A stretch of 64,000 nucleotides of DNA from an uncultured Gemmatimonadales bacterium (GCA_963779755.1 CAVZZO010000003.1:352001-416000); one strand, 5' to 3'. Counted from the stretch's first letter, positions 27,612-52,800 are shown. The notes: a model not told the origin generated them from the letters alone. Translations and numbers: made by a program.

Positions 27612-27825
27612 GTTATATGGCGAAACGCTCTCGGCCTCAACCGGAACCGGGGCCAAATGCCTGGGCCGCCTCACGGAGACCGGGGCGCCGGCACCTGTTG
27701 GAACTTCTGCCGCGCTTTGATGCATGGCGGCCCGAACAGCGCCCTCAAGGAACTTGGGCGGCCACCACCAGATGCTGTTGTACATCAAAAGAGAACGAGC
27801 AGTCCAGCCCGTTCGACCATATAAC
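27612..27825 (-). other. ORF-less cassette family C (copies 41627-41840, 51256-51469, 51596-51809)
   Basis: ~210 bp between attC sites, ends GTTATATGG and CCATATAAC, no ORF stopping within the cassette. Confidence 0.8.
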
Positions 27826-27952
27826 GAAGTGCGCGTGTGCTGCAGCGCGATCCCTCAGGTTCTCACAAACCTACGCTTCCACAGCCGCGGCGCCAGGAGG
27901 CCCGGGCGAGGGCCGGCGGTCCGCGCGACCGGCCTGCAGAACGACGCGCTTG

Positions 27953-28357
27953 TTAGGTTGCTGCAGGATGCCCGCTGCGCCGGCGCCATTCAAAGACGAC
28001 GACCAGGGCGAGAACGAGCAGAATGGGAGCCGTCAGTACCCCTGGGGTATAGCCTCCTTGCTGCCAGGACCACAACGGATGACCGACGCCGTTGATGACT
28101 TCGATGGTCACCCAGAACGTGACAATCGCTCCCGTCCCACGCCAGCCGCGCCTCACGGGCCAGATAAAGCACCAAACCCCAAAAGCAACGAGGGCGACAT
28201 TGAGGACCGCAAACCCGACCTGCCGGTTGCTCGACACTAAGCCGGTGAGAATGCGGGCTGGCGGGAAGGAGTCGTAGAGCTTGCCCAGATATTCCTCGAC
28301 CGAGTGCGCTGCCTGGCCAAGTACCAGTGCTCCAAACGCCAAGTGAAAGCGAGACAT
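27953..28357 (-). CDS. HXXEE-domain membrane protein (cassette)
   Basis: HSVEE motif and YTPGVLTA; stop in attC TAA. Confidence 0.85.
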   Translation of the reverse strand: MSRFHLAFGALVLGQAAHSVEEYLGKLYDSFPPARILTGLVSSNRQVGFAVLNVALVAFGVWCFIWPVRRGWRGTGAIVTFWVTIEVINGVGHPLWSWQQGGYTPGVLTAPILLVLALVVVFEWRRRSGHPAAT

Positions 28358-28501
28358 GCTTGGCAGCAACCTAACGAAGTGCGCGTGTGCTGCAGCGCGG
28401 TCCTTCAGGTTCTCACAAACCTACGTTTCCTTAGCCGCGCCGCCAGGAGGCTCGGCCGATGCCAGGCAGCCAGCGCGACCGGCCTGCAGAACGACGCGCT
28501 T

Positions 28502-28797
28502 GTTAGCAACCAGCTGCGCACGGCGGCCTAGGCTAGCCCGGAGCCCGCGCCCCGAAGCCCTGGCCGCCCGCTGGGAACGGTGCGGCGCGGGGACGGCCCG
28601 GTGGCGTGGAACTCTCACGGCACCTGCCCTGCCCCGACCGCGCCGGGCTCCAGAAGCCCTGGGCGGCGGATTCGTTTGAGCCTTTCTGCACGGAGGCGGG
28701 GCCGCCCGCAAGGAGTTGCTCTCGGGTTCCTGAGCTCCGCGGCCCTCATGGGGCCCACCAAAGAGACCCGCTGCGGTGCCTCGCTTGTGTTGCTAAC
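28502..28797 (-). other. ORF-less cassette family B (copies 39083-39376, 39503-39799, 41967-42263; variants 43182-43482, 46306-46612)
   Basis: ~295 bp, ends GTTAGCAAC and GTTGCTAAC, very GC-rich, no credible ORF. Confidence 0.8.
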
Positions 28798-28922
28798 GAA
28801 GTGCGCGTGTGCTGCAGCGCGATCCCTCAGGATTTCACAAACTTACGCTTCCACAGCCGCGCCGCCAGGAGGCCGGAGCATGGGCCCGCGGCCCGCGCGA
28901 CGGCCTGCAGAACGACGCGCTC

Positions 28923-29377
28923 ATGTACGCGGATCCTTTCGGGCTGCCTGCCCAGGATTGTTGTATCGAAACGGGGGATTGGCGAAAGGATAACCTGCTT
29001 CACCCTGCTGTCTACAGCGGCAAGAGAGACAACCCGATGCTGGGAGTAGCTGTGGGTCTCCTGGCCGTTGCAGGTGGGGCCGAACTGGCTGCTCCCAGGT
29101 TATTTGCCGCGGCCACCGCTGCTCTTCCTAAGGTACCGTTTGAGAAATTCCAGGACTGGGGACGAAATGTTGTCCAATGGGGCCGTGGGGCAGCGGGGGC
29201 AATTCAGCGGGTTTCTGAAGTGACGGCGAGCAGGCCTCTAAATTGGATCCACAGAAAGTGAAGATGGCTCGCGACTTCTACCAGAAAGCTGTTGATGCTG
29301 GCCGAGGGGGAGCCGCCGCACCCGAACGAGTAAAGCTGATGGAACGCATTTTAGACCTGCAGCAGAGAACCCATTAG
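28923..29377 (+). pseudogene. Toxin tip B, frameshifted copy
   Basis: Same as 22448-22903 apart from a 1-nt deletion near 29227 and a substitution near the start. Confidence 0.75.
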
Positions 29378-29423
29378 TGGCTCGGTCCGGTCTATTCGAG
29401 CATTGCAACACGGAGGAAGAGCC

Positions 29424-29672
29424 ATGCTGGAAGCAGCGGTCACACTTCGGCTTACGAATAGATGCGAAACTGCGCGGAAGCTCGTGATTGAGCCATGGAC
29501 CACCGAGTTTCGACTGCAACCTGGGCACACTTACGACTTGGTGATATCAGGGGACCTTGGCCTCCCCTTAGAGGTTGAGTTCGAGGACGACGAACTAACC
29601 GTATACACTTTCGATTCCGCCAATGCCTCCTTCAAGATTTCCGAAGGCGGGGCTGAACTTAAACCACTGTAG
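29424..29672 (+). CDS. Putative immunity protein B (copy)
   Basis: Identical protein to 22950-23198. Confidence 0.65.
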   Translation: MLEAAVTLRLTNRCETARKLVIEPWTTEFRLQPGHTYDLVISGDLGLPLEVEFEDDELTVYTFDSANASFKISEGGAELKPL

Positions 29673-30156
29673 GAGCCCGGCCCTGTCTAGCCGGGGCGCT
29701 CGGGGCGCCTCCGGGTTGTCGGGCCTGAACTCCGAGGGGTTGGGTCTAGTTAGGAGCCTCGCGGGCTGCCGCGCGTGGCGGACCTCGGCCGGCGGAAAAG
29801 GAAAGTGGTGGGGGCCCCACGAGTTCAGCGGAACCCATCGGCTCCAGACCTGCCGCGAGCCGGCTCCCTCGTCGGGCGTATGCGCCCACGGGAGCAGACG
29901 GGGTCACCCCACCGGCTCCAAGGTGCTACCGGTCCTTCGATTGTCAAAGAGCGCCGCGTTCCGCGTGCCGGCGGGATCCTGGCACCACCCTCATAGGTCG
30001 TTGAGGCTCGGGGCCTCCCACATCTTCATGGATGCTCTCCGATCGCGGCCGGGCGGCCAGCAACACTCTGTGCGCGGAGCTCACCGAAGACGCCGGCGGC
30101 TCAAGGCAAATAGAGGGCGGCCTGGCCGCGCACGCGCGGCTCCCACCGATCTCCGG

Positions 30157-31422
30157 CTATTCGCTCACCACCGGCTCTGCGTGATGCCGCTGCGCCTCCC
30201 AGCGCTCCCGCTCGAACGGCTGGCCCGAGTGGAGTACGGCCAGGAGGAGCGGCACCAGCTTGCGCGCCACCGCACAGACCGCCTTGGTCCGGAGCCCGCC
30301 ATTGCGGGCCAGCAGGGCCTGATAGTACGCGCGGTAGAGCCCCCGGGGCTGGCACCAGCGGCCGCCCAGGAGGAACAGCTGGCGGCGGAGCAGCGGCAGG
30401 CCCCGTTTGGACTGTTTGCGCCGCCCCTGCACGCTGCCGCTGGAACGCTCGACCAGATTCATGCCTGCGAGTTTCAGCACCTGGCGGGGATGAGTGAAGC
30501 GCTCCGGAGTGCCCAGCTCGGCCACAATCGTAGCCGCACAGGTGGCACTCACCTCGGGAATGGTGGTCAGCGCCTTGGCGGCGGGACACTGCTCCACCAA
30601 GGCGGCGATCTGCTGGTTCAACACCGCGAGCTGCTCCCGCAGGAGGTCCCAGCGGGCCAGGAGCTGCTGGATCTCCAACCGCCGCTCGGGAGCGGCGTCG
30701 GCCAGGGCGACACTGGTGCGGGCGGACTCGCGCAGGACGTGGAGCCGCTCCGGGCCCACGTGGCCCCGCGAGACGGACCGCGCCAGGCGCGTCACCGCGG
30801 CCGGGGCGGCTGCCAGGAAGTCCTGCGGCAGCGGCCAACGCGCCAGCAGGGCGCGCGGGGTGGGCTTGCGCACCTGCGAGAAGTGCGTCAGGAACTCGGG
30901 CCAGGCCAGGTCGAGCAGGCTCTGGAGACGGTTCTTGAACCGGGTTTCCTCGACGGTTAACCGGTGCGGTGGGTGGTGAGCAGCCGCAGCTCGAGATACG
31001 GGGGCTGCAGCGCCGGATATCCCACGAAGATCCCCAGGCTCACCAGCTTGCAGATCTCGGCGGCATCCTTCGCGTTCGTCTTGTTGGGGCTGTTATCCTC
31101 CAGTTCCTTGGCCCGCTTGGTGTGGGCCGGCAGGATATTGACCAGCGCATAGCCGCGCGCCGCAGGCACTCGGCAAACGTGAAGCCGTGATGGCCGGCGA
31201 ACTCCAGCCCCACCAGCATCTGTCCGGGCCGGACGCCGGGAAACCAGGCCGTCAACTGCGCCGCGGCGGCCTCGAAGCCTGCGCGGCTCACCGGCACTCG
31301 GACCGGCTTCGTCGCCGGCCATCGGGGCCCTGGGCGACCAGGACGTGAACGCGCTTGGCGGTGTCCACACCCACGTGGACGGGAAACCAGCGGGCGTAGG
31401 CGGACTTCTCATCGGGGGTCAT
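30157..31422 (-). pseudogene. IS110 recombinase, frameshifted copy
   Basis: Homologous to the other two copies but split across frames. Confidence 0.85.
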
Positions 31423-31508
31423 AGCGCGGCTCCGGGTGGAAGGAATCACAGGAGTCGCGGAAGGAGCTACGGGCCGCGCCGCGGCGTCAAGCGGGTATAG
31501 ATGTCTTG

Positions 31509-31934
31509 TTAGACAGTGCCCCGTACCTCCTGAACGCGTCCACCTACGACCGGGTCATATGGAGAAGGACACGGACATCTTGAGCCGGGCGGGCACGTGT
31601 TGCGTGTTAGCATCGCCGGTTGAAACCGGCAAGTCCTGATAGATGCAGCAGCTGCAGCCCCGAACCTGGCATCGGAAGCACTCAGAACCCGCACTGACGC
31701 GCTGTCCACGGACCCGCTTGAATCGACAATGAAGGCCAAGGAGACGGTCCCAGATACTCGGGCAACTCGTAAGGAAGGTGGATAGACGGGCTCTACGCAG
31801 CTGATGTAACGCGGGAGGCTATCGAGAGTTGAACCATCTAGGGCGGTGGCCGGCTGGTGCTTGCCAGCCCCAGGGATCCCGTTGGTAGCACAGGCTGCGA
31901 GGAGTAAGAACGCCACAGCTGTACTTCCTCTCAT
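31509..31934 (-). CDS. TonB C-terminal-domain lipoprotein (cassette; C-terminus possibly frameshifted)
   Basis: LAAC lipobox, PVYPPSLR...GTVSLAFIVDSSG...RFQPA. Confidence 0.7.
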   Translation of the reverse strand: MRGSTAVAFLLLAACATNGIPGAGKHQPATALDGSTLDSLPRYISCVEPVYPPSLRVARVSGTVSLAFIVDSSGSVDSASVRVLSASDARFGAAAAASIRTCRFQPAMLTRNTCPPGSRCPCPSPYDPVVGGRVQEVRGTV

Positions 31935-32101
31935 GCGTCTGCTCCTAGTGGCGTGGCACTGGCTAACGAAGTGTGCGTCAGCGGCGGCGCGATGCCCCGC
32001 TCCTTCACAATCCTACGCTTCCACAGCGCGACCGCTAGAGGCCTGGGAGATGGGCCAACGGGCGGCGCGACCGGCCCGTCTGCTGGACGCACTTGTTAGA
32101 C

Positions 32102-33735: not shown

Positions 33736-33892
33736 CAGGTCCCCCCTGTTGCATGGTCAGCGGCAACGAAGTGCGCGTGTGCTGCAGCGCGATCCCTCAG
33801 GTTTTCACAAACTACGCTTCCACAGCCGCGCCGCTAGGTGGCCCGAGCGTGGGTCTACAGCCCGCGCGACCGGCCTGCAGAACGACGCGCTT

Positions 33893-34199
33893 GTTAGCTG
33901 CCGGCCGAGAGGACGCTACCTCTTCCGGCTGGGGACCCACGCTCGGAGGCACGGCCGCCGGCCGGAAGCCCAGCGGGGCGGAGGAAGATCGGATGCCTCC
34001 GAACCAGCTTGGGGCCTTCCGTGCCCCGAACGCCTCGCGGCCAGGAGTCTTGGGCGGCCCGGCGGAGTGTTCGATGCGACCCGCGCAAGGAGGCCGGTGC
34101 CGCCTCACGACGATCAAGCAGTTGAGGAAGCCCGGCGGCACCATCAGGAGCCCACCAAGAGATGAGCAACGGACAGCTTGGCTGGCTCGTGCAGCTAAC
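33893..34199 (-). other. ORF-less cassette family A (copies/variants 35914-36240, 36365-36690, 38082-38407, 41193-41500, 47848-48170, 49334-49637, 49766-50092, 52395-52769)
   Basis: ~305-375 bp, ends GTTAGCTGC and GCAGCTAAC, conserved GAGCCCACCAAGAGATCAGCA block; indels between copies do not preserve frame. Confidence 0.8.
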
Positions 34200-35750: not shown

Positions 35751-36817
35751 GACTTGCCTCCTATTGATGCTCCGCGCTGGCTAACGGTCTGCGTTTCAGC
35801 GGCGGCGCGATGCCCCGCTCCCTCATAATCCTACGCTTCCTTACCGCGACCGCTAGATGTCCGAGCAATGCACCAGCGGCCTGCAGCACCGTGCCCGGCC
35901 GCTGCAAACGCTTGTTAGCTGCCGGCCGCAATGACATTCTCGGTTGCGATGACGCTGCCGGCAGGTGCGGAGTCCCCACCCCGGGAGGCCCGGCCGCCCC
36001 CTCGGAGCTCCGGCGGGGCGGAAGATCGCTGGACGCTTGTCCACCGGGAACGACGCTGACCCTGCCCCGACCGCCCCGCGGGGAGGGGCCCCGGGCGGCA
36101 TGGCGGAGCCTGCCAGACGACCCGCGCAAGGAGGCCGGTGCCGCCTCACCTCCGCCAACCAGCTGAGGAACTCCGGCGGCACCACCAGGAGCCCACCAAA
36201 AGATCAGCACTGGGAGGCCCGGCTGGCGCGTGCAGCTAACGAAGTGCGTTTGAGCGGCGGCGCAATGCCCCGCGCTCTCACAAACCTACGCTTCCACAGT
36301 GCGGCCGCTAGATGCCGAGAACGGGCCAGCGGGCCGCGCCCCGGCCCGCCCGCTGGAAACGCTAGTTAGCTGCCGGCCGCATTGACATTCTCGGCTGCGA
36401 TGACGCTACCGGCAGGCCGGGGCCCCCACGCCGGGAGGCCCGGCCGCCCTCTCGGAGCTCCGGCGGGGCGGAGGATCGGCGGGCGCTGCCCAACGGGTAC
36501 GACGCTGACCCTGCCCCGACCGCCCCGCAGCAACGAGTTCTGGGCGGCATAGCGGAGCCTTCCAGACGACCCGCGCAAGGAGGCCGGTGCCGCCTCACCT
36601 CGACCAACCAACAGAAGGAGCTCCGGCGGCACCACCAGGAGCCCACCAAGAGATCAGCACTGGGCAGCCCGGCTGGCTCGTGCAGCTAACGAAGTGCGCG
36701 TGTGCTGCAGCGCGATCCCTCAGGTTCTCACAAACCTACGCTTCCACAGCCGCGCCGCTAGGAGGCCCGGGCGAGGGCCGGCGGTCCGCGCGACCGGCCT
36801 GCAGAACGACGCGCTTG

Positions 36818-37222: not shown

Positions 37223-37367
37223 CTTGGCAGCAACCTAACGAAGTGCGTTTCAGCGGCGGCGCGATGCCCCGCTCCTCCACAATCCTACGCTTCCACAGCG
37301 CGACCGCTAGATCCGGGGGCAATGCACCAACAGGCAGCAGCACCGGCCCGCCCGCTGGAAACGCTAG

Positions 37368-37868: not shown

Positions 37869-38534
37869 GTGCCGGGCCCGTGGAAGGAGACCTTCTGCCA
37901 CTACTTGTTCTCCGTCCTCCAGCCGTGACCTAGTCGACTTGCTGCGCCCTAACGACCTGCGTTTCAGCGGCGGCGCGATGCCCCGCCCTTTCACAATCCT
38001 ACGCTTCCACAGCGCGGCCGCTAGATGTCCGAGCAATGCATCAGCGGGCGGCAGCACCGTGCCCGGCCGCTGCAAACGCTTGTTAGCTGCCGGCCGCAAT
38101 GACATTCTCGGCTGCGATGACGCTGCCGGCAGGTGCGGAGCCCCCGCGCCGGGAGGCCCGGCCGCCCACTCGAAGCCCCGGCGGGGCGGCAGATCGCTGG
38201 ACGCTGTCCACCGGGAATGAAGCTGACCCTGCCCCGACCGCCCCGCGCCGCGGTGCCTTGGGCGGCATGACGGAGCCTACCAGACGACCCGCGCACGGAG
38301 TCAGGTGCCGCCTCGGCTCCGCCAACCAACTGAGGAGCTCCGGCGGCACCACCAGGCGCCTACCAAGAGATCAGCACTGGGCGGCCCGGCTGGCGCGTGC
38401 AGCTAACGAAGTGCGCGTGTGCTGCAGCGCGATCCCTCAGGTTCTCACAAACCTACGCTTCCACAGCCGCGGCGCCAGGAGGCCCGGGCGAGGGCCGGCG
38501 GTCCGCGCGACCGGCCTGCAGAACGACGCGCTTG

Positions 38535-38939
38535 TTAGGTTGCTGCAGGATGCCCGCTGCGCCGGCGCCATTCAAAGACGACGACCAGGGCGAGAACGAG
38601 CAGAATGGGAGCCGTCAGTACCCCTGGGGTATAGCCTCCTTGCTGCCAGGACCACAACGGATGACCGACGCCGTTGATGACTTCGATGGTCACCCAGAAC
38701 GTGACAATCGCTCCCGTCCCACGCCAGCCGCGCCTCACGGGCCAGATAAAGCACCAAACCCCAAAAGCAACGAGGGCGACATTGAGGACCGCAAACCCGA
38801 CCTGCCGGTTGCTCGACACTAAGCCGGTGAGAATGCGGGCTGGCGGGAAGGAGTCGTAGAGCTTGCCCAGATATTCCTCGACCGAGTGCGCTGCCTGGCC
38901 AAGTACCAGTGCTCCAAACGCCAAGTGAAAGCGAGACAT
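38535..38939 (-). CDS. HXXEE-domain protein, copy 4
   Basis: Identical protein to 27953-28357. Confidence 0.85.
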   Translation of the reverse strand: MSRFHLAFGALVLGQAAHSVEEYLGKLYDSFPPARILTGLVSSNRQVGFAVLNVALVAFGVWCFIWPVRRGWRGTGAIVTFWVTIEVINGVGHPLWSWQQGGYTPGVLTAPILLVLALVVVFEWRRRSGHPAAT

Positions 38940-39927
38940 GCTTGGCAGCAACCTAACGAAGTGCGCGTGTGCTGCAGCGCGATCCTTCAGGATTTCACAA
39001 ACCTACGCTTCCTTAGCCGCGCCGCCAGGAGGCCTAGGAAGGGCCGGCGGACCGCGCGACCGGCCTGCAGAACGACGCGCTTGTTAGCAACCAGCTGCGC
39101 ACGGCGGCCTAGGCTAGCGCGGAGCCCGCGCGCGAAGCCCTGGCCGCCGCTGGGAACGGTGCGGCGCGGGGACGGCCCGGTGGCGTGGAACTCTGACGGC
39201 ACCTGCCCTGCCCCGACCGCGCCGGGCTCCAGAAGCCCTGGGCGGCGGATTCGTTTGAGCCTTTCTGCACGGAGGCGGGGCCGCCCGCAAGGAGTTGCTC
39301 TCGGGTTCCTGAGCTCCGCGGCCCTGATGGGGCCCACCAAAGAGACCCGCTGCGGTGCCTCGCTTGTGTTGCTAACGAAGTGCGCGTGTGCTGCAGCGCG
39401 ATCCTTCAGGATGTCACAAACCTACGCTTCCTTAGCCGCGCCGCCAGGAGGCTCGGTCGATGCCAGGCAGCCAGCGCGCCCGGCCTGCAGAACGACGCGC
39501 TTGTTAGCAACCAGCTGCGCACGGCGGCCTAGGCTAGCCCGGAGCCCGCGCCCCGAAGCCCTGGCCGCCCGCTGGGAACGGTGCGGCGCGGGGACGGCCC
39601 GGTGGCGTGGAACTCTCACGGCACCTGCCCTGCCCCGACCGCGCCGGGCTCCAGGAGCCCTGGGCGGCGGATTCGTTTGAGCCTTTTTGCACGGAGGGCG
39701 GGGCCGCCCGCAAGGAGCTGCTCTCGGGTTCCTGAACTCCGCGGCCCTCATGGGGCCCACCAAAGAGACCCGCTGCGGTGCCTCGCTTGTGTTGCTAACG
39801 AAGTGCGTTTCAGCGGCGGCGCGATGCCCCAGCCCTTTCACAATCCTACGCTTCCACAGCGCGACCGCTAGATGCCGGGGCTAGGCACCAAAAGGCAGCA
39901 GCCTCGGCCCGTCCGCTGGAAACGCTA

Positions 39928-40144: not shown

Positions 40145-40270
40145 GAAGTGCGCGTGTGCTGCAGCGCGATCCTTCAGGATGTCACAAACCTACGCTTCCT
40201 TAGCCGCGCCGCCAGGAGGCTCGGTCGATGCCAGGCAGCCAGCGCGACCGGCCTGCAGAACGACGCGCTT

Positions 40271-40594
40271 GTTATGTGGCAACCACGCGGGCCGACGCTC
40301 CACACCGCGCGGCGATCTCTTCGGCCGCCTCGCAGAGCCCAGGGCGACTCCCAGGCCCGCATGCCCGGCCGCGTCAGAGCACTGAGGGCGCCGGCGCGAT
40401 GATCACACCCGAAAATGCTTGGGACCTTGCCCTGCCGGCGCCCATACGGGGCCGCGGCGCCACCACTGGATCGGAGCCCGCTGGGAATCCTGGCGGCCAG
40501 CGCCACAGCGGATCACAAAAGGCCACAAGCGAGGAGCCGTTCTGACTGCTGTACAGAAAGACCCAGGAACAGTCCGGCTTCCTTGCCACATAAC
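40271..40594 (-). other. ORF-less cassette family E (copy 42390-42709)
   Basis: Ends GTTATGTGGCAA and TTGCCACATAAC; shares GAACAGTCCGGC with family D. Confidence 0.78.
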
Positions 40595-40755
40595 GAAGTG
40601 CGTTTCAGCGGCGGCGCGATGCCCCGCTCCTACATGATCCTACGCTTCCATAGCGCGACCGCTAGATCCTCCGGAGATGAACCACGAGGCCGCAGCCCCG
40701 GCCCGCCCGCTGGAAACGCTAGTTAGACAGCAGGCAAGTGAGAGGCCGAGAAGCT

Positions 40756-41010
40756 TCATTCCGATTTCAGCTCAGTGCCGCCACGAAATGCCTTGAGCTC
40801 GGCGCCAGGAGTATCGAACGCGGAGATGGTGATCTCGGAACCCTGGAGCTCAATCAGCAGCGGCGTACCGGGAGTTCCGGTGACCTCAACTTCGAGATCA
40901 CCGTGTGAACCGATCGTGTATTCACCTGTCCAAGGCTCAAGGATCACCTTGCGGGCCTCGTCGTCAAGGTTCGCCAGTCGGAGCCGGAAGGTGATCGGTT
41001 TACTGGACAT
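40756..41010 (-). CDS. Orphan homolog of immunity protein B, as a normal cassette
   Basis: LRLANLDDEARKVILEPWTGEY...GGTELK aligns with LRLTNRCETARKLVIEPWTTEF...GGAELK. Confidence 0.75.
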   Translation of the reverse strand: MSSKPITFRLRLANLDDEARKVILEPWTGEYTIGSHGDLEVEVTGTPGTPLLIELQGSEITISAFDTPGAELKAFRGGTELKSE

Positions 41011-43967
41011 AGCGGGCCGTTCCACGTTGGCAATTGGCTACAATGCGAAGGGTCCTGCTGGCTAACGAAGTGCGCGTGTGCTGCAGCGCGATCCCTCAGG
41101 TTTTCACAAACCTACGCTTCCACAGCCGCGCCGCTAGGTGGCCCGAGCGTGGGTCTACAGCCCGCGCGACCGGCCTGCAGAACGACGCGCTTGTTAGCTG
41201 CCGGCCGAGAGGACGCTACCTCTTCCGGCTGGGGACCCACGCTCGGAGGCACGGCCGCCGGCCGGAAGCCCTAGCGGGGCGGAGGAAGATCGGATGCCTC
41301 CGAACCAGCTTGGGGCCTTCCGTGCCCCGAACGCCTCGCGGCCAGGAGTCTTGGGCGGCCCGGCGGAGTGTTCCATGCGACCCGCGCAAGGAGGCCGGTG
41401 CCGCCTCACGACGATCAAGCAGTTCAGGAAGCCCGGCGGCACCATCAGGAGCCCACCAAGAGATCAGCAACGGACAGCTTGGCTGGCTCGTGCAGCTAAC
41501 GAAGTGCGCGTGTGCTGCAGCGCGGTCCTTCAGGATTTCACAAACCTACGCTTCCACAGCCGCGCCGCCAGGAGGCCGGAGTGTGGGCCAGGGGCCTGCG
41601 CGACTGGCCTGCAGCACGACGCGCTTGTTATATGGCGAAACGCTCTCGGCCTCAACCGGAACCGGGGCCAAATGCCTGGGCCGCCTCACGGAGACCGGGG
41701 CGCCGGCACCTGTTGGAACTTCTGCCGCGCTTTGATGCATGGCGGCCCGAACAGCGCCCTCAAGGAACTTGGGCGGCCACCACCAGATGCTGTTGTACAT
41801 CAAAAGAGAACGAGCAGTCCAGCCCGTTCGACCATATAACGAAGTGCGCGTGTGCTGCAGCGCGATCCTTCAGGATGTCACAAACCTACTCTTCCTTAGC
41901 CGCGCCGCCAGGAGGCTCGGTCGATGCCAGGCAGCCAGCGCGCCCGGCCTGCAGAACGACGCGCTTGTTAGCAACCAGCTGCGCACGGCGGCCTAGGCTA
42001 GCCCGGAGCCCGCGCCCCGAAGCCCTGGCCGCCCGCTGGGAACGGTGCGGCGCGGGGACGGCCCGGTGGCGTGGAACTCTCACGGCACCTGCCCTGCCCC
42101 GACCGCGCCGGGCTCCAGGAGCCCTGGGCGGCGGATTCGTTTGAGCCTTTTTGCACGGAGGGCGGGGCCGCCCGCAAGGAGCTGCTCTCGGGTTCCTGAA
42201 CTCCGCGGCCCTCATGGGGCCCACCAAAGAGACCCGCTGCGGTGCCTCGCTTGTGTTGCTAACGAAGTGCGCGTGTGCTGCAGCGCGATCCCTCAGGATT
42301 CCACAAACCTACGTTTCCTTAGCCGCGCCGCTTGGAGGCCTCAGGAAGGGCCGGCGGCCCGCGCGACCGGCCTGCAGAACGACGCGCTTGTTATGTGGCA
42401 ACCACGCGGGCCGACGCTCCACACCGCGCGGCGATCTCTTCGGCCGCCTCGCGGAGCCCAGGGCGACTCCCAGGCCCGCATCCCGGCCGCGTCAGAGCAC
42501 GAGGGCGCCGGCGCGATGATCACACCCGAAAGTGCTTGGGACGTAGCCCTGCCGGCGCCCATACGGGGCCGCGGCGGCACCACTGGATCGGAGCCCGCGA
42601 GGAATCCGGGCGGCCAGCGCCGACGATAACAAAGCACGAGGAACCAGGAGCCGGCAGCTTCCTCAACAGAAAAGGAACCAGGAACAGTCCGGCGTCCTTG
42701 CCACATAACGAAGTGCGTTTCAGCGGCGGCGCGATGCCCCACTCCCTCACAATCCTACGCTTCCACAGCGCGACCGCTAGACCGCCGGGAGATCCCCAAG
42801 CGGCGGCAGCACCGGCCCGCTCGCTGGAAACGCTAGTCAGCCGCAACGCGCTCTCCGCCACGTGCGGAGCGGAGCCAAGATCCCTGGGCCGCCTCACGGA
42901 GATCGGGGCGCGGCACCGGTTAGAACTTCTGACGCGCTTTGATGTGCTGCGGCCGGAAAAGAGCCCTCACGGAGCTACGGCGGCCACCGCCAGATGCTTA
43001 TCACGAACGGAAGCGAATCATAGGAACAGTCCTCGGCTTGCTTGCGGTGTAACGAAGTGCGCGTGTGCTGCAGCGCGAACCCTCAGGTTTTCACAAACCT
43101 ACGCTTCCATAGCCGCGCCGCTAGGAGGCTTCGGGTCGATGCCAGGCAGCCCGCGCGACCGGCCTGCAGAACGACGCGCTTGTTCAGAGACCGGCTGCGC
43201 ACGGCGGCCTGAGCTAGATCGGAGCCCGCGCCCCGAAGCATTGGCCGCCCGCTGGGAACGGTGCGGCGCGGGGACGGCCCGGTGGCGTGGAAAACGCCGG
43301 GCACCTGCCCTGCCCCGACCGCGCCGGGCTCCAGGAGCCCTGGGCGGCGGAATCGCTTTGAGCCTTTTTCCACGGGGGGCTGGGCCGCTCGCAAGGAGCT
43401 GCTCTCGGATTCCTGAAATCGGCGGCCCGCCTGGGGCCGCCTCAAAGAAGACCCGCAGCCGTGCCTGGCTTGTGTTGCTAACGAAGTGCGTTTGAGCGGC
43501 GGCGCGATGCCTCAGGCCCTCACAAACCTACGTTTCCACAGCCGCGACCGCTAGGAGGGCCGGGAGATGCCCCAAGCGGCCGGCAGCGGCCGGCCCGCTA
43601 GCTGGAAACGCTAGTTACAGCTGCAACGCGCTCTCCGCCACGTGCGGAGCGGAGCCAAGATCCCTGGGCCGCCTCACGGAGATCGGGGCGCCGGCACCGG
43701 TTAGAACTTCTGATGCGCTTTGATGTGCGGCGGCCGGAAAAGCGCCCTCGCTGGAGCTCCGGCGGCCACCACCAGATGCTTTTCACAACAGAAGAGAAAG
43801 GAACAGTCCGGCTTGCTTGCGGTGTAACGAAGTGCGTTTCAGCGGCGGCGCGATGCCCCGCTCCCTCACAATCCTACGCTTCCGCAGCGCGACCGCTAGA
43901 TGCCCGGGGATGCACGATCAGAGAGCAGCCCCGGGCTCGTCCGCTGGAAACGCTAGTTAGACAGCGG

Positions 43968-44455
43968 CTAAATCCAATGGGGACGAGCAATGACTTCGGG
44001 CCCCCTCGGTGCCGTGTTCTCGTGGTCCTTGCCGGTGCGAAATGACTGAAAGTCCCGCAACTCACGCCGCTCATTCTCCTGTAGCTGGACGAGTTCTCTT
44101 ACTCGCCAGAAGATGGCCCATCCTGCGGCCGTATCACCGTTAGCGGCAAACCTCGCCGTTGATGGAGGTCGATGACCAAGCTTCTCATCCTGTCTCTTCT
44201 CGAGGGCATCCTCAGTCGAGCCCATATATTTGCCCTGCCAAGCAACGACATAGCCCCATTCTGCGAGATCCTCATTATGAGAAGCATAGAGAAGTAACAG
44301 GTACGTCCTGATCTCTTCTTCTGCTCATCGACATCCCGGAACAGCTCGTACTTTTGTGACCCGAAGGACACATACCCGGTCAAGGATGCGATTCCTGGCG
44401 CGTCCTCAAGGTGGATGCGGGGTACCGGAGCCAGGATGGCAAAATCCACTGCCAT
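43968..44455 (-). pseudogene. Hypothetical protein MAVDFAILAPVP..., frameshifted
   Basis: GGAGAGG RBS; ORF continues in another frame (43968-44225). Confidence 0.6.
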
Positions 44456-44647
44456 GACCTCTCCTTCTTGGCTTCTGAAAGAACGTGATCCCACACCGCT
44501 GGCTAACGAAGTGCGTTTCAGCGGCGGCGCGATGCCCCGCTCCCTCACAATCCTACGCTTCCACAGCGCGGCCGCTAGATGTTTGGAGTTGCGCCAGGCG
44601 GCAGCAGCCCCGGCCCGTCCGCTGGAAACGCTAGTTACGCAGCAGCC

Positions 44648-45068
44648 TGAAGGTCGTTCGGAGTGAGCCCGGTATGCTTCGAGATTCGGGCGAGCATTCT
44701 CTCGTTCGATGCCATTTCCTCTTGGTCAGTGGAAGGCAAAGACGAAGTCAGGCCAGCCTGCCCGACTCAACGTCCGGTGGGAGCCGGATTCGCGCTTGAC
44801 AGACCAGCCGATCCGGAGAAGAGCCGCCAAGACCCGTCGGGCCTTCGGCAGCTCCCCAGCTACTCATGCGGCCTGAAAGCTAAGGTTCAGGAGTTCGGGG
44901 ACAGCCTCGCCATGCTCCAAGCGTTCGGCCAAGGAACGCAAGGCCAGGGCTTGGACCTCGCACGGCGTCAGGCCGCGTGACCCCGTAGGCCATCACGCCC
45001 GGGAGGTCCTGGACCTCCGCAAGCCAACGGCCATCAGTCTCCTGTTCGACCTCGATACGGAGAATCAC
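44648..45068 (-). pseudogene. Second copy of the hicBA cassette, with indels
   Basis: Matches 26325-26740. Confidence 0.8.
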
Positions 45069-45259
45069 GGCGTTCCTCCAAGGCTAGTTTGCTTGGCCCA
45101 AATCTAACTGGGAAGCGGCCTTGCTGCGTAACGAAGTGCGTTTCAGCGGCGGCGCGATGCCCCGCCCTTTCACAATCCTACGCTTCCTTACCGCGACCGC
45201 TAGATCCCCGGGAAATGCGCCAGCAGGCTGCAGCCCCGGCCCGCCCGCTGGAAACGCTA

Positions 45260-45596
45260 GTTAAATGGCAGCCGTCCACGAGAGGTGATCGATTCCGTTC
45301 CCCGATCTCCCCAACGCACGACTCCCCGGCCTTTTACCCCGCTAGCGGAGGACTGTGGCTCCGAGCGCTTGGATTTTGGATCTGGGCAACCCAGCCTGGG
45401 AGCAGACGTCTCTACGCGCCCCCTGAGCCCGCTACGAGATCCGGGGCCCGCTGAGCGCCCGCCGGAATGCACTAATCCAGGATTCCACCTGCGCTCGTGC
45501 CAAAGGCCTCATTCCTGAGCCGCCCAGTTGGCCGGGCCTTCCTCCGAAAGGAGCACCTCCTGGATCAGCCAAGGACGGCCGGCACGTCCATTTAAC
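45260..45596 (-). other. ORF-less cassette family F (copy 51937-52266)
   Basis: Ends GTTAAATGG and CCATTTAAC; no credible ORF. Confidence 0.75.
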
Positions 45597-45742
45597 GAAG
45601 GGCGTTTCAGCAGCGGCGCGATGCCCCGCACCCTCAGCAATCCTACGCTTCCACAGCGCGAGCGCTAGATGCTTGGGAGACGCACCCAGTGGCGGCGGCA
45701 CCGGCCCGGCTGCTGCAAACACTGTTAGACAGCACTGCGCGA

Positions 45743-46164
45743 CTATCCGGTCTCAAAGGATATACCCGAGAAGTCGGGGGTCCGGTTGATCAGCGACTGG
45801 AAGCTCGCATCGCCCTCTACCACCGAAGCCCAGTCCTCATTGGCCGGGAAATCCATCGACGAGTGGTCCACTTCCACTATTCCTGGCGCAGGTCCAAAGC
45901 CCAACTCCACTACGAGGCGACCAATGAGCGCGTCCTGGGCCTGCGGAGCTTCGCTTTCGCGATCAGAGAATTGCCGGACTATAAGCAATGTCGCGTAGCC
46001 CTCATCTTCTTGGATCTGAACCGAAGCGAAGGTAGCAATCTGAGACTTCCCGCCGGAGTGCACCAGAACACGCGCCAGGTCGGCCACGGATCTAAGTGCG
46101 CCGGATTGAGGCCGTGGCGTTCAAGAGCTAACAGGAACTCAGGCCTAGCCCGAAATGCTTCCAT
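45743..46164 (-). pseudogene. Hypothetical protein, apparently frameshifted (cassette)
   Basis: Overlapping minus-strand ORFs 45979-46164 and 45743-46087 together fill the cassette. Confidence 0.45.
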
Positions 46165-49100
46165 TGGTGCTGGCTAAACGAAGTGCGCGTGCGCTGCAGC
46201 GCGAACCCTCAGGTTTTCACAAACCTACGCTTCCACAGCCGCGCCGCTAGGAGGCTGTCGGGTGGGTCGGCGGCCCGCGCGACCGGCCTGCAGAACGACG
46301 CGCTTGTTAGCAACCGGCTGCGATGACGCCGCCTGAGCCACATCGGAGCCCCGCCCGGAGCATTGGCCGCCCGAGCGGAACCTCGCGGCGCGGCGGCCTA
46401 GCCGGTGGTCGGGACAACGCCCGGGACCTACCCGCCCCGACCGCGCCGATCTCCAGGAGAGCTGGGCGGCGGAACCGCACCTCAGCGATTCCACGGCGCC
46501 TGGGTGCTGGGCCGTCTTGCGGTGCTCCGAAATCTCCTGGAAATCAGGCGGCCCGCCAGGAGCCGCCTCAAAGAAAGCACCCGGACAGCCCTGGCTGGCT
46601 CGTGTTGCTAACGAAGTGCGTTTCAGCGGCGGCGCGATGCCCCAGCCCTTTCACAATCTACGCTTCCACAGCGCGACCGCTAGATGCCGGGGCGAGGCAC
46701 CAAAAGGCAGCAGCCTCGGCCCGTCCGCTGGAAACGCTAGTTACAAGGCAGCGCGCTCGCGAGCGGGACCGAACCAAGATCGCTGGGCCGCCGCAAGGAG
46801 CGTTGGGCGCCGGCACCCGCCCGAACCTTCCCGATGCGCTTTGATGCCGGGCGGCCCTAACAGCGCCCTCACGGAGCTTTGGTTGGCCACCACCAGATGC
46901 TTCTCACAACGGCAAAGAATCAAGAACAGTCCGGCTTGCCTGCCGTGTAGCGAAGTGCGCCTCAGCTGCGGCGAAGAACCTGACTTCCTTCACAAACCTA
47001 CGTTTCCGCAGCGCGGCCGCTAGATCAGCGGGAGATGCGCCAAGCGGTCTCGCACCGGCCCGTCAGATGGAGGCGCTAGTTAGGCCGTGGCTCCGCGCGT
47101 TAATAGCCTTTCGGTTGCCATGCCGATGATCGTATCACGATTCGTGCAGGCTTCACACCGTCGCCCGACACCATAACGGTAAGGAAAACCACCCTGCTTT
47201 TCGAAGAGATCGTTATAGCGATACGGCAGTCCTTGTACATGGGGAATGAACGTGACTGTCTAGTCCTGAAGGATATCAAGTAGAGGAAATACCGCACCCC
47301 TCGAGCGAGATCCTGGGGTCGGTAGGCTCAGAACCGCTGACAGAAACCCCGTTAGGATACTTCACTATACTGGGACCTAACGGCATGCCCGGCATCGTCG
47401 AGATCTGAAAGTTGGTAAGGTAGGCCCGGCACGCCTTAGCTAGACGGAAGGACTTAGAGCTCTGACCTTGACTCGGAGATAGATCCCTGCCGCTGGAAGG
47501 CCCGTGGTTCTCCGGGTCAGTGTGATGAGACTTTCACATTCCCGGAATGTCAGGTTGAGCTATGAGCGCAACCACCATAGCCAGCACCTGGCTCGGCACG
47601 CAAAGCAATGAGGAAGCTGCAGAGGACGACAAGAAATGTCGGGAGAAGCTGGGCGAACGAAGCTGCTTGCTTAGGAGCGATCACGGTCTCGGATGATCTT
47701 GGCCTCTCCCACGGCCTAACGGTCTGCGTTTCAGCGGCGGCGCGAGGCCCCGCTCTCTCATAATCCTACGCTTCCTTAGCGCGATCGCTAGATGCCTGGG
47801 CAAGGCACCGGCGGGCTGCAGCACCGTGCCCGCCCGCTGAAACGCTTGTTAGCTGCCGGCCGCAATGCCATTCTCGGCTGCGATGACGCTGCCACAGGTG
47901 CGGAGCCCCCAGCCGGGAGACCCGGCCGCCCGCTCGGAGCTCGGCGGGGCGGCAGACGCTGGACGCTAGTCCACCGGGAACGACGCTGACCTTGCCCCGA
48001 CCGCCCCGCGGGGAGGGGCCTCGGGCGGCATGGCGGAGCCTGCTAGACGACCCGCGCAAGCAGGCCGGTGCCGCCTCACCAGCGCCAACCAGCTGAGGAG
48101 CTCCGGCGGCACCACGAGGAGCCCACCAAGAGATCAGCACTGGGCGGCCCGGCTGGCGCGTGCAGCTAACGAAGTGCGCGTGTGCTGCAGCGCGATCCCT
48201 CAGGTTCTCACAAACCTACGCTTCCATAGCGCGCCGCCAGAAGGCCGCATGGCACCAACTGGCCGCAGCACCGGCCTGCAGAACGACGCGCTCGTTAGGC
48301 CGCAACGCGGGCACGGCCCGGAAACTCGACCTGCGAGTCTAGAGCTCCACGAATACCCGCGTGGCGGAATACATCAATGCTGCCGCCTCGCCGCATTGGC
48401 TTGAGAACTGGTCCACCCTACTGCCGAAACCCAGCTTCTCATAGAATTGACGGCTGTTGACCATTTCGGAAAATGCTATGAGGAGATCTCGAAGCTGGCG
48501 GACGCTGGACCATCGAACTGGCTAACCTGAGGGAACCACCCATCTGAGGCATGTCGCAAGCGCGCGCGGCAATGTAGTAGAAGCATCTGTGTGAAGCTGC
48601 ACTTCGAACCTTGCCTCATTCGAGCAGGCGTCGAGCGTCCTAACTCCTACCATTGCACCTCGCCTCTGGAAGTCCAGGCCACGGCTCGTCGAAACAGCGA
48701 ATCAGCTGTTCAGGCGCTCATCGACCTCCTCTCCGAGATCTCGCTGACCCTTCCCGAGAGCCAGAAAAGTCGCATACCTGGACGTGCATGCTCAGCTTGC
48801 GGATCGCAGACCCAAGGTAGTCATAAAGCTCCATCTGGTTCCGTGGGTATAGTGGCGCCTAACGAAGTGCGTTTCAGCGGCGGCGCGATGCCCCAGCCCT
48901 TACACAATCCTACGCTTCCACAGCGCGACCGCTAGATCCGGGGCTAGGCACCAAAAGGCAGCAGCCTCGGCCCGTCCGCTGGAAACGCTAGTTACAAGGC
49001 AGCGCGCTCTCGCCCGCGAGCGGGACCGAACAAAGATCGCTGGGCCGCCGCAAGGAGCGTTGGGCGCCGGCACCCGCCCGAACCTTCCCCATGCGCTTTG

Positions 49101-50231
49101 ATGCCGGGCGGCCCGAACAGCGCCCTCACGGAGCTTGGGCGGCCACCACCAGATGCTTCTCATAACGGCAAAGAATCAAGAACAGTCCGGCTTGCCTGCG
49201 GTGTAACGAAGTGCGCGTGTGCTGCAGCGCGATCCCTCAGGTTTTCACAAACCTACGCTTCCACAGCCGCGCCGCTAGGTGGCCCGAGCGTGGGTCTACA
49301 GCCCGCGCGACCGGCCTGCAGAACGACGCGCTTGTTAGCTGCCGGCCGAGAGGACGCTACCTCTTCCGGCTGGGGACCCACGCTCGGAGGCACGGCCGCC
49401 GGCCGGAAGCCCTGGCGGGGCGGAGGAAGATCGGATGCCTCCAACCAGCTTGGGGCCTTCCGTGCCCCGAACGCCCCGCGCCAGGAGTCTTGGGCGGCCC
49501 GGCGGAGTGTTCCATGCGACCCGCGCAAGGAGGCGGTGCCGCCTCACGACATCAAGCAGTTCAGGAAGCCCGGCGGCACCATCAGGAGCCCACCAAGAGA
49601 TCAGCAACGGACAGCTTGGCTGGCTCGTGCAGCTAACGGTCTGCGTTTCAGCGGCGGCGCGATGCCCCGCTCCCTCATAATCCTACGCTTCCTTACCGCG
49701 ACCGCTAGATGTCCGAGCAATGCACCAGCGGCCTGCAGCACCGTGCCCGGCCGCTGCAAACGCTTGTTAGCTGCCGGCCGCAATGACATTCTCGGTTGCG
49801 ATGACGCTGCCGGCAGGTGCGGAGTCCCCACCCCGGGAGGCCCGGCCGCCCCCTCGGAGCTCCGGCGGGGCGGAAGATCGCTGGACGCTTGTCCACCGGG
49901 AACGACGCTGACCCTGCCCCGACCGCCCCGCGGGGAGGGGCCCCGGGCGGCATGGCGGAGCCTGCCAGACGACCCGCGCAAGGAGGCCGGTGCCGCCTCA
50001 CCTCCGCCAACCAGCTGAGGAACTCCGGCGGCACCACCAGGAGCCCACCAAAAGATCAGCACTGGGAGGCCCGGCTGGCGCGTGCAGCTAACGAAGTGCG
50101 CGTGTGCTGCAGCGCGATCCCGACTTCCTTCACAAACCTACGTTTCCGCAGCGCGGCCGCTAGATCCCTCGGAGATGCCCCACCCGGCGGCAGCACCGGC
50201 CTGCAGAACGACGCGCTTGTTACACAGCACC

Positions 50232-50501
50232 CTAGAGGTCTTGGATCAGCCGCTCGTACTCGTCGTGGGAGCCAATCCAAAACCAAAGAATGAGCTCGCC
50301 CTCGCGCACGCCAAGAGCGCGATACCCCAGACTGACCCGGGCGGAGTAGATCGGCTGTGTGGCGTGGACTGGCTTGAAATGCAGGCTTGGGTGCTGCGGG
50401 TCGTCACGGAATTGCTGATAGGCCTTGCGGGCTCGCTCCTGCACATGGACCGGTAAGGCCCCGAACGCCTTCCGGAACCGGGCCGTGGTCCTGGAGATCA
50501 A
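50232..50501 (-). CDS. RelE/ParE-like toxin, copy 2
   Basis: Identical to 26944-27213. Confidence 0.85.
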   Translation of the reverse strand: MISRTTARFRKAFGALPVHVQERARKAYQQFRDDPQHPSLHFKPVHATQPIYSARVSLGYRALGVREGELILWFWIGSHDEYERLIQDL

Positions 50502-50716
50502 AGCCGGTCGGGATCTAGAGCCTCTGATCGGCCGGCCCGATGCTCCTCCAGGGCCTCCTGGGCCAGCCTCTGCAGCTGATCTCCAGAGGCACCCAAGAGG
50601 GCTTCCCACCGCGCATCGGCGGCCAATTCTTCCAGGATCGCGGCGGCAAGCTCGTCCTGGTCCTTGGGGGGGAGCCGGGAGGCCACTTCAAAGGCCTTCT
50701 TCAGGTTACGGGTCAT
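50498..50716 (-). CDS. Antitoxin, copy 2
   Basis: Identical to 27210-27428. Confidence 0.75.
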   Translation of the reverse strand: MTRNLKKAFEVASRLPPKDQDELAAAILEELAADARWEALLGASGDQLQRLAQEALEEHRAGRSEALDPDRL

Positions 50717-50901
50717 GCTGGATGATATGGCAAAGGAGAGCGGCGCGCTAGCCGCGCCTCAGTGCTGTGTAACGAAGTGCGTTTCAGCGGCGGCGCGATG
50801 CCCCGCTCCCTCACAATCCTACGCTTCCACAGCGCGACCGCTAGATGCCGGGGGGATGCACCATCAGGCAGCAGCCCCGGCCCGCTCGCTGGAAACGCTA
50901 G

Positions 50902-51105
50902 TTATACGGAACCGCGACGGACCTCTTCGAGCACATCGCGGGCTCGACCATAATCTTCCTCGGCGACTACCCATACGCTGAACGGGTTCCCGTGAATGCC
51001 GGACAGAGCCTCGCCGCGTACGACGGCCGGAATACCCGCAGCCTCAAGGGCCAGCTTCAGGCTGTATGCATCTGTCGCCACTGATGACCGGAGTAGTTCA
51101 CGCAT
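50902..51105 (-). CDS. DUF2007-like small protein (cassette)
   Basis: LKLALEAAGIPAVVRGE...VWVVAEEDYGRARDVL; stop in attC TAA. Confidence 0.7.
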   Translation of the reverse strand: MRELLRSSVATDAYSLKLALEAAGIPAVVRGEALSGIHGNPFSVWVVAEEDYGRARDVLEEVRRGSV

Positions 51106-52762
51106 CCGTATTGCCTGGGTGCCGTATAACGAAGTGCGCGTGTGCTGCAGCGCGGTCCTTCAGGATTTCACAAACCTACGCTTCCACAGCCGCGCCGCCA
51201 GGAGGCCGGAGTGTGGGCCGGGGCCTGCGCGACTGGCCTGCAGAACGACGCGCTTGTTATATGGCGAAACGCTCTCGGCCTCAACCGGAACCGGGGCCAA
51301 ATGCCTGGGCCGCCTCACGGAGACCGGGGCGCCGGCACCTGTTGGAACTTCTGCCGCGCTTTGATGCATGGCGGCCCGAACAGCGCCCTCAAGGAACTTG
51401 GGCGGCCACCACCAGATGCTGTTGTACATCAAAAGAGAACGAGCAGTCCAGCCCGTTCGACCATATAACGAAGTGCGCGTGTGCTGCAGCGCGGTCCTTC
51501 AGGATTTCACAAACCTACGCTTCCACAGCCGCGCCGCCAGGAGGCCGGAGTGTGGGCCAGGGGCCTGCGCGACTGGCCTGCAGAACGACGCGCTTGTTAT
51601 ATGGCGAAACGCTCTCGGCCTCAACCGGAACCGGGGCCAAATGCCTGGGCCGCCTCACGGAGACCGGGGCGCCGGCACCTGTTGGAACTTCTGCCGCGCT
51701 TTGATGCATGGCGGCCCGAACAGCGCCCTCAAGGAACTTGGGCGGCCACCACCAGATGCTGTTGTACATCAAAAGAGAACGAGCAGTCCAGCCCGTTCGA
51801 CCATATAACGAAGTGCGTTTCAGCGGCGGCGCGATGCCCCGCCCTTTCACAATCCTACGCTTCCTTACCGCGACCGCTAGATCCCCGGGAAATGCGCCAG
51901 CAGGCTGCAGCCCCGGCCCGCCCGCTGGAAACGCTAGTTAAATGGCAGCCGTCCACGAGAGGTGATCGATTCCGTTCCCCGATCTCCCCAACGCACGACT
52001 CCCCTACCCCGCTCGCGGAGGACTGTGGCTCCGAGCGCTTGGACTTCGGATCTGGGCAACCCAGCCTGGGAGCGACGTCTCTACGCGCCCCCTGAGCCCG
52101 CTACGAGATCCGGGGCCCGCTGAGCGCCCGCCGGAATGCACTAATGCAGGGGTTCTACCTGCGCTCGTGCCAAAGGCCGCATTCCTGAGCCGCCCAGTTG
52201 GCCGGGCCTTCCTCCGAAAGGAGCACCTACTGGATCAGCCAAGGACGGCCGGCACGTCCATTTAACGAAGTGCGTTTCAGCGGCGGCGCGATGCCCCGCT
52301 CCCTCACAATCCTACGCTTCCTTACCGCGACCGCTAGATGTCCGAGAAATGCACCAGCGGGCTGCAGCACCGTGCCCGCCCGCTGCAAACGCTTGTTAGC
52401 TGCCGGCCGCAATGACAATTTCGGGTGCGATGACGCTGCCGGTATGTGCGGAGCCCCCGCGCCGGGAGACTACGGGCCGCACGGCGCGCTGCAACCGGCA
52501 GAAGCCGGCGCCGTCGGCGGCCAGCTGACGCGCTAGGAGAAGGCAGCGACGCTCTCCGAACCCGCTCGGACTGCACCTTCCTTGCCATGGAGCCGCCCCG
52601 CGGAGAGAAACCTTGGGCGGCATCGCGGAGCCTTCCAGGCGACCCGCCGCAAGGAGGCCTGGTGCCGCCTCACCGCTACCAACGCAACTGCAGAGTTCCG
52701 GCGGCACCACCAGAGCGCTCTCACCAAGAGATCAGCACTGGAGCGGCCCGGCTGGCGCGTGC

Positions 52763-52800
52763 AGCTAACTATGAATTCGATTGCGCGCATGGGCAGGGGG
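52763..52800 (-). other. Putative attI site, crossover G/TT at 52769/52768
   Basis: The last cassette end GCAGCTAAC is followed by unique TATGAATTCG instead of the attC GAAGTGCG; full extent unknown. Confidence 0.75.

Follow-up and report, generated by a model that had tools for sequence, protein, structure and literature searches.

Integron cassettes without an open reading frame (ORF) are textbook-known (PMC8618304; throughout, PMC identifiers stand for excerpts of the articles concerned). In vibrios, paralogous non-coding cassettes account for 6–49% of arrays and have homologues only within vibrios, and they were proposed to be selfish elements or to have a promoter or RNA function (Boucher 2006, PMC1382264). 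Treponema denticola has an integron of the reverse (unusual) type (Coleman et al. 2004, via PMC4909258), and integrons are already on record for Gemmatimonadota (PMC8618304). Here we describe a reverse integron with 62 cassettes, 28 of which are non-coding, in a stretch of 64,000 nucleotides (the window; positions are counted from its first letter) from the genome of an uncultured Gemmatimonadales bacterium (GCA_963779755.1, CAVZZO010000003.1:352001-416000). That an integron cassette may give an RNA and not a protein is exemplified by sRNA-Xcc1 of Xanthomonas. An original prediction, made from the sequence of the window, had counted about 28 ORF-less cassettes among some 62 and had offered structured RNAs, promoters and selfish units mobilised by the integron integrase (IntI) as their possible roles.

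The cassettes of this locus resemble those of Vibrio in being bounded by attC sites, gene-less and highly paralogous, in showing no synonymous-site pattern and in having homologues in close kin or none, and they take up 45% of the slots here, against 6–49% of the array in vibrios (Boucher 2006, PMC1382264). The criterion of 'no ORF >150 bp' given in the excerpt of the Vibrio study does not describe the cassettes found here, which contain frames of 27–141 aa; at approx. 70% GC, this criterion is uninformative. Differences from Vibrio are the phylum (Gemmatimonadota), the GC content of approx. 70% and the reverse layout, along with the division into three lineages with common conserved blocks and a strictly attI-proximal position. 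With the T. denticola integron the platform is shared, whereas its description, in the excerpt, is not about gene-less cassettes (PMC4909258), and in the present array it is non-coding cassettes that follow intI, in slots 1–4. No paper on non-coding cassettes in Gemmatimonadota was found by a limited literature search, which is not a claim of their absence from print. Gene-less paralogous cassettes are an already known kind of element; particular to this locus are their setting in a reverse integron of Gemmatimonadota, the reduction of six apparent families to three lineages, their host-like GC content and their strict restriction to the part of the array near attI.

Non-coding cassettes in the attI-proximal part of the array

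The source genome (4.23 Mb in four contigs, GC 68.6%) carries the cassette array and the integrase gene intI on contig C3 (352001-416000). The array (10049-52768, minus strand) was delimited from 62 attC matches, from the cassette borders and from R''/R' complementarity, and consists of 62 cassettes, numbered from c1, which adjoins attI, to c62; in every cassette the attC forms the low-coordinate end, and the cassette minus its attC is referred to as the payload. Twenty-eight of the 62 are non-coding, as the original prediction had it, and the predicted size (210–375 bp) and GC-richness were likewise recovered, with payloads of 207–370 nt and a median GC content of 69.8% (range 61.7–74.2, n=28) versus 60.9% in 31 coding payloads (p = 5e-8). 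These gene-less cassettes make up 45% of the slots and 27% of the bases of the array. Their position is strongly biased: 28 of the 45 attI-proximal cassettes are of this kind, and the distal group of 17 has none (Fisher p = 4.6e-6). The four slots nearest to attI, expected to be all of this type, are occupied by members of families B, F, A and A, all non-coding, and the expected absence of such cassettes left of 27.6 kb also stands, the most distal one being c45 (27485-27824), with a payload that begins at 27616.

All-against-all blastn of the 62 payloads produced clusters of 9, 9, 6, 4 and 3 members, six pairs and 19 singletons. The non-coding set consists of families A (9), B (9), C (6), E (2) and F (2), 28 in total; family C corresponds to family B of the original prediction, and our family B to its families C and D combined. 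Cluster D of the present naming (four cassettes, 419-nt payload) is coding and lies outside the 28, with a 138-aa frame from position 6, the Pfam domain HXXEE and a GC content by codon position of 0.63/0.49/0.70. The HXXEE-domain cassette is present in four copies, c31, c34, c38 and c44. Two single-copy cassettes, c10 (48170-48862) and c12 (46951-47719), with payloads of 565 and 637 nt, have no convincing ORF either; their longest sense frames (47 and 65 aa, respectively) have no Pfam match, and they may be further non-coding cassettes or pseudogenes.

Membership and borders were established from payload blastn and from the attC sites, and all 28 cassettes lie on the minus strand. Family A has members in slot 3 (c3, 51469-51808, attC to 51599, with a terminator-like hairpin and T run at its 5' end) and slot 4 (c4, 51130-51468, attC to 51259), followed by c9 (48863-49206, attC to 48994), which represents a second subtype, c13 (46612-46950, attC to 46743), c19 (43482-43827, attC to 43617), representing a third subtype, c21 (42709-43052, attC to 42839), c24 (41500-41839, attC to 41630), c28 (39799-40143, attC to 39931) and c45 (attC to 27615); the payloads of c4, c24 and c45 are identical to that of c3. 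Family B begins in slot 1 with c1 (52266-52768; attC 52266-52398, payload 52399-52768) and continues with c7 (49637-50091, attC to 49769), c11 (47720-48169, attC to 47851), c32 (37953-38406, attC to 38085), c35 (36240-36689, attC to 36368) and c36 (35785-36239, attC to 35917), the last with a payload identical to that of c7, and with a short subtype made up of c8 (49207-49636, attC to 49337), c25 (41066-41499, attC to 41196) and c40 (33767-34198, attC to 33896). Family C comprises c14 (46179-46611, attC to 46309), its most diverged member, c20 (43053-43481, attC to 43185), c23 (41840-42262, attC to 41970) and c29 (39376-39798, attC to 39506), which are identical in payload, c30 (38957-39375, attC to 39086) and c43 (28375-28796, attC to 28505). 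The two members of family E are c22 (42263-42708, attC to 42393) and c27 (40144-40593, attC to 40274), and those of family F are c2 in slot 2 (51809-52265, attC to 51940) and c16 (45132-45595, attC to 45263).

Within-family identities range from 70.5 to 100% in family A (6 identical pairs of 36), from 66.3 to 100% in family B and from 61.1 to 100% in family C (one identical pair each). Identities of 61.1–100%, together with the scattered identical copies, agree with the earlier view that identical and diverged members occur side by side and that the set did not arise by one recent duplication. By nhmmer with family profiles, B and C are homologous along their full length, at approx. 60–65% identity (E ~1e-12 both ways). 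The same profiles, run against the 62 payloads, revealed a common stretch at the 5' end (50–120 nt) of A and E (E 1e-4 to 7e-6) and a weak match of one A member to the 5' end of B (E 2e-4), left family F without kin and matched no coding cassette with any non-coding family. The B–C and A–E matches reduce the six apparent families to three lineages: the six predicted families thus contained the right 28 cassettes, but the division itself collapsed, and as judged from profile similarity the set resolves into B+C (15), A+E (11) and F (2).

Several other ideas were considered and abandoned. No exact motif is common to all families; a single 8-mer, GAGGCGGC, is found in A, B and E and is frequent genome-wide, and an early scheme of modules, M0–M3, survives at profile level only. 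Payloads as fused recombination sites were also considered; nhmmer with the attC profile and short-word blastn detected no meaningful attC relic inside them.

Layout of the integron and its attC sites

A 12-mer seed retrieved 59 sites, of which the 58 beyond position 9000 were aligned, and nhmmer with the resulting 58-site profile detected 62 sites at 10044-52406, all in one orientation, with scores of 38–132 bits. The sites begin with TAA|CGAAGTG and end in GTTA-like boxes. Each attC is complementary to the opposite end of the segment that adjoins it towards higher coordinates, and not to its low-coordinate neighbour; for example, GTTAGGTTGC at 36820 (attC end) pairs with GCAACCTAA at 37238 (far end of its own cassette). 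This pairing places attC at the low-coordinate end of each cassette; it follows that the minus strand is the reading strand of the cassettes and that attI is at 52768|52769. The first bases of each cassette are complementary to its own R'' box (inverse core), which is the signature of a circularisable unit, and the Pfam-matching ORFs of the coding cassettes are mostly on the minus strand too. Two attC sequence types alternate along the array, as seen across its 62 sites.

The intI gene (53144-54163, minus strand) encodes an integron integrase of 339 aa, which matches Pfam Phage_integrase and SAM_4 and NCBIfam TIGR02249 (integron integrase; 448 bits, cut-off 265). It shares the direction of the cassettes, with its 3' end facing attI, and since both are encoded on the minus strand, the integron is of the 'reverse' type. 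The intI stop codon and cassette c1 are separated by a spacer (52769-53143, minus strand; from sequence reading and border calls) whose low-coordinate end contains attI, the crossover falling between 52768 and 52769. The stop codon is 375 nt away from the end of the array, which terminates in ...GCAGCTAA|C with unique sequence beyond. A 26-bp tandem repeat of 4.9 copies (52963-53086, no strand assigned; Tandem Repeats Finder, score 171) is located between the intI stop and attI.

Coding potential of the payloads

The payloads had been described as lacking a credible ORF. Open frames of 27–141 aa do exist in the non-coding cassettes; what held of that description is that these frames show no signs of being genes. 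A GC content of approx. 70% makes open frames common, and therefore the absence of an ORF is not the deciding test. Coding potential, which the original prediction had named as a check, was evaluated from the distribution of substitutions, and the result is that of non-coding DNA: none of the three codon phases is favoured in any of the 17 pairs from families A, B and C with at least six substitutions (for example, 9, 10, 10 in c7/c32; 13, 9, 12 in c7/c35; 18, 19, 18 in c3/c19; and 30, 37, 35 in c14/c23). The positive control, the genome's two intI paralogues (57% amino-acid identity), which are more diverged than the test pairs, gave 115, 100 and 166 (p = 8e-5). Indels of 1–2 nt occur in nearly every tested pair of these families, and the conserved nucleotide blocks fall in differing frames between members, with frame-breaking indels between the blocks.

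Other signs of genes were sought at the 5' ends and in protein databases. The coding cassettes c18, c37, c42, c50, c53 and c58 have a ribosome-binding site and a start codon within approx. 20–60 nt of their 5' end; this combination was seen at the 5' end in none of the five non-coding families, as read by eye. Pfam (E <= 0.01) was matched by none of 56 ORFs of at least 50 aa from 18 representative non-coding cassettes, and by 18 of 62 ORFs of coding cassettes, including ParE, HicA/B, PIN, Fic, DUF2007, HXXEE, glyoxalase, methyltransferase and DoxX. Three ORFs were compared with 5.8 billion proteins: one returned nothing, one its own call and the public protein P0002, and one its own calls only, so that apart from calls on the same genome the search produced nothing except P0002, a spurious ORF that crosses an attC. 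The 28 payloads do not code.

It follows from the same observations that decayed pseudogenes, or small-protein genes overlooked here, are a highly improbable source of these payloads. In favour of such genes one may cite that open frames reach 141 aa, that 6 of 9 family B members keep a short antisense frame which stops at the border TAA, and that a gene caller annotates antisense ORFs in non-coding cassettes (P0001). These are, however, outweighed by the missing codon periodicity among members, the frame-breaking indels between conserved blocks, the internal stops in c40, c23 and c30, the 0 of 56 ORFs in Pfam and the outcome of the 5.8-billion-protein search, which brought back own calls and the attC-crossing ORF. 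As a further candidate, a conserved antisense peptide that runs to the border TAA (...RRHHQEPTKRSA...) was examined and rejected: the frames differ by subtype, and this short frame, the only one that recurs, is broken by stops in c40, c23 and c30.

Mobility of single cassettes

Identical payloads are found at scattered slots, namely in c3, c4, c24 and c45, and in c7, c36 and two cassettes on contig C1. The latter contig (683001-693000) harbours a second integron, small and likewise of the reverse type, with five attC sites and an intI of its own (57% identical in amino acids to the intI of the window), in which family B occupies slots 1, 2 and 4, slots 1 and 2 being identical to c7/c36. Genome-wide, family B thus occurs in nine slots of the window array and in three on contig C1, and family A has nine matches, all in the window array. 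Twenty-eight cassettes have a twin with at least 95% identity, 16 of them non-coding and 12 coding, and only one neighbour pair of cassette types recurs (C then D). Scattered identical copies with a single recurring neighbour pair argue that the cassettes were copied singly and not by segmental duplication: the non-coding cassettes have moved one at a time, which is what attC x attC excision with insertion at attI would be expected to produce.

Arrays are rich in repeats, and the many identical copies could raise the suspicion of assembly duplications. We consider this explanation barely credible, as the copies are flanked by different neighbours, the families have diverged members (61–98% identity), family B is present on two contigs and an independent public contig, the one that carries P0002, implies two adjacent B cassettes.

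The 28 units are genuine integron cassettes with a non-coding payload, and the explanation that we favour, and regard as probable, is that they are passengers that are repeatedly excised and re-inserted at attI by IntI. According to this mechanism, IntI would excise single cassettes at attC and re-insert them at attI, and copy number would increase when a cassette excised from one replicated copy enters a chromosome that has retained the original. The outcome would be an array whose attI-proximal two thirds are filled, along with three of the five slots of the second integron. The cassettes would be hitch-hikers on the integron's own recombinase, and their spread may require no host benefit. 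Among the three roles proposed by the original prediction, that of selfish IntI-mobilised units fits best with the attI enrichment, the scattered identical copies and the occurrence in both integrons.

A number of observations weigh against the passenger explanation. Twelve of the 28 cassettes with twins are coding, and amplification is therefore not peculiar to those without a gene. In neither bottom-strand folding energy nor profile score do non-coding cassettes have the better attC sites when compared with coding cassettes, and this equality leaves no sign of a recombination advantage at attC. Family A is found on both attC types (the c3-type on type 1, the c9 and c19 types on type 2), as is family B (the c7-type on type 2, the c8-type on type 1), and a crossover by IntI at the attC core cannot yield one payload family on two attC types. 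Furthermore, a purely selfish payload needs no conservation, yet in an alignment of the 14 distinct B+C payloads, all from one genome, the invariant columns (81 of the 285 with good occupancy) are strongly clustered, with none of 5000 permutations reaching the observed window variance or as few runs. Three helices were delineated in this alignment, P1 (alignment columns 65-71 with 108-114), Pa (155-161 with 262-268) and Pb (176-184 with 240-248), which are paired in 93.4% of 320 cells, and two of their 23 pairs are compensatory (66:113, UA/GC; 180:244, GC/CG), each representing one B-versus-C split. Such patchy, clustered conservation suggests that some of the payload is under constraint all the same.

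Conservation and structure

Such a constraint bears on another explanation, according to which the payloads serve as functional nucleic acids, be it as small or cis-acting RNAs produced by transcription along with the array or as recombination-active single-stranded DNA (ssDNA) structures, and are kept by selection, the integron merely spreading them. We hold it to be possible, although on balance unlikely. It would account for the block-like conservation, for the retained helices with their two compensatory pairs, for the alignment of B with C over the full length despite approx. 60–65% identity and for the 5' module common to A and E. The first slots, moreover, are occupied, and these are the best expressed ones in ordinary integrons (PMC8618304).

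RNAalifold alone recovers P1 and Pa. When the 3' partners are shifted by 1–3 columns, 39–63% of cells remain paired, a control that flatters the helices, as they were derived from the same sequences. Folding is no more stable than that of shuffled sequences: the z-scores for sense and antisense strands, respectively, are −0.45 and −0.33 in c7 (family B) and −0.91 and −0.73 in c3 (family A), and are ordinary for the composition. Each compensatory pair goes back to a single event between B and C. Wobble cells give no strand signal (2 sense-only versus 4 antisense-only G-U among 320), and the pairs that are kept are all Watson-Crick, which indicates no strand. In Rfam, the only match at gathering threshold was a tRNA at 58656-58729, outside the array, and nothing with E <= 1 was found in 27000-53200. 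The alignment comprises only 14 distinct sequences, from one genome. For the structured RNAs of the original prediction, the search for covariation has accordingly yielded three helices and two compensatory pairs of 23, but neither unusual folding energies nor an Rfam match. A G-quadruplex was rejected as a candidate: one canonical motif is seen in c7, and by eye it is not kept in c32 or c8.

A more far-reaching version can be formulated, namely that B+C and A+E would represent a new class of integron-borne structured elements (RNA or folded ssDNA), under purifying selection and acting in cis on expression or recombination in reverse integrons, where intI transcription enters the first cassettes. 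This seems to us doubtful, and less likely again than functional elements in the general sense.

Promoter and terminator signals

The promoter role suggested for the ORF-less cassettes was not borne out: a scan of 38000-53200 for the sigma-70 consensus found 1 site compared with 1.5 in shuffles, for a phylum whose promoters are uncharacterised. Terminator-like sites in the same stretch number 9, compared with 12.7 in shuffles. Three of these nine are copies of one element, a hairpin of 8 bp with TCTTTTG behind it, located at the 5' end of each of c3, c4 and c24; c45 lies beyond the scanned stretch and has the same payload as c3. Many members have a T-rich tract 20–35 nt from the 5' end. Among 16 sequences inspected (15 non-coding representatives and c6), six lack a U tract, and the strongest hairpin of a non-coding cassette reaches −10.4 kcal/mol. 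The idea of a terminator at every 5' end was dropped, since it is true of the c3-type only, the others having a weak hairpin or none. The ParE-like coding cassette c6, and likewise c46, has at its 5' end (50735-50760 in c6), upstream of the start codon, a strong GC hairpin with a T-rich run after it.

We regard as improbable, on these grounds, that the payloads are promoter or terminator cassettes that restart or insulate transcription within the array. There is precedent in Vibrio sp. DAT722, with cassette promoters in a large array and expressed non-coding cassettes (PMC2945992), and both the hairpin with TCTTTTG at the start of c3-type family A cassettes and the T-rich tract of many members would suit such a role. 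Opposed to it are the number of sigma-70 sites, which does not exceed expectation, the GC content of approx. 70% and the weakness or absence of a hairpin before the T tract in most families.

Origin and occurrence outside the genome

The GC content of the non-coding payloads is near that of the genome (68.6%), whereas that of the coding payloads is lower; gene-less payloads therefore look native and coding ones imported, and from base composition the non-coding families appear to be native to this lineage and not imported.

Searches outside the genome were samples, and their result is to be read as 'not found in those searched'. BLAST with family A against 40 relatives gave a single match of 31 nt. 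For family B, 60 relatives contained two weak matches of at most 54 nt, without support from the family profile or an attC; for family C, 20 relatives contained one match of 45 nt, again without attC or profile support and apparently in ordinary coding sequence; and for family F, no match was found in 20 relatives. The proposal to look for copies in other genomes has therefore brought no convincing homologue among the 20–60 relatives examined per family. Among 400 further genomes from the phylum, one contained an exact B-type motif pair, with no attC nearby. The pattern with which attC sites start was found at 5 loci in a species-representative collection and at 39 in a metagenome collection; none of these 44 matches a family profile at E <= 0.01, and a full-length look-alike attC is present at only two of them. 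One further record comes from the public protein P0002, encoded on a contig of 8979 bp, which is an antisense read-through from one B cassette across attC into another (83% identity over 46 residues). By this translated match, family B evidently also occurs elsewhere, in at least one further strain or sample.

Other cassettes of the array

The distal run c46–c49 is composed of cassettes that each have one near-identical copy nearer to attI, with the order kept (c6/c46, c17/c47, c33/c48 and c42/c49). Toxin-antitoxin cassettes cluster distally, in c55–c46 (17743-27484), a region free of gene-less cassettes; its contents are ParE-like, HicA/HicB, ParE with antitoxin, PIN, Fic/Doc, PIN with RHH and an HTH protein, several of them on the opposite strand. 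Three cassettes, c57 (14043-17293), c49 (22320-25470) and c42 (28797-31966), are each approx. 3.1 kb long because an IS110-family element (DEDD_Tnp_IS110 and Transposase_20) is inserted at the same point of their attC (...CTCATGTACGCGGATCC). We take this insertion to resemble those of the attC-targeting IS1111 group. The transposase frame of the copy in c42 is broken. The same junction of IS110 element and attC exists on contig C1, and matches to the attC profile were also obtained on the small contigs C2 and C4.

Significance

Taken alone, the finding is a further example and not a new principle. It does show gene-less cassettes in the slots that are normally best expressed, and the clustered conservation and the three retained helices offer concrete targets for mutagenesis. 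The 20-year-old question posed by the Vibrio cassettes, whether they are parasites of the integron or regulators, is thereby raised in another phylum, at approx. 70% GC and in an integron whose integrase gene reads into its own cassettes.

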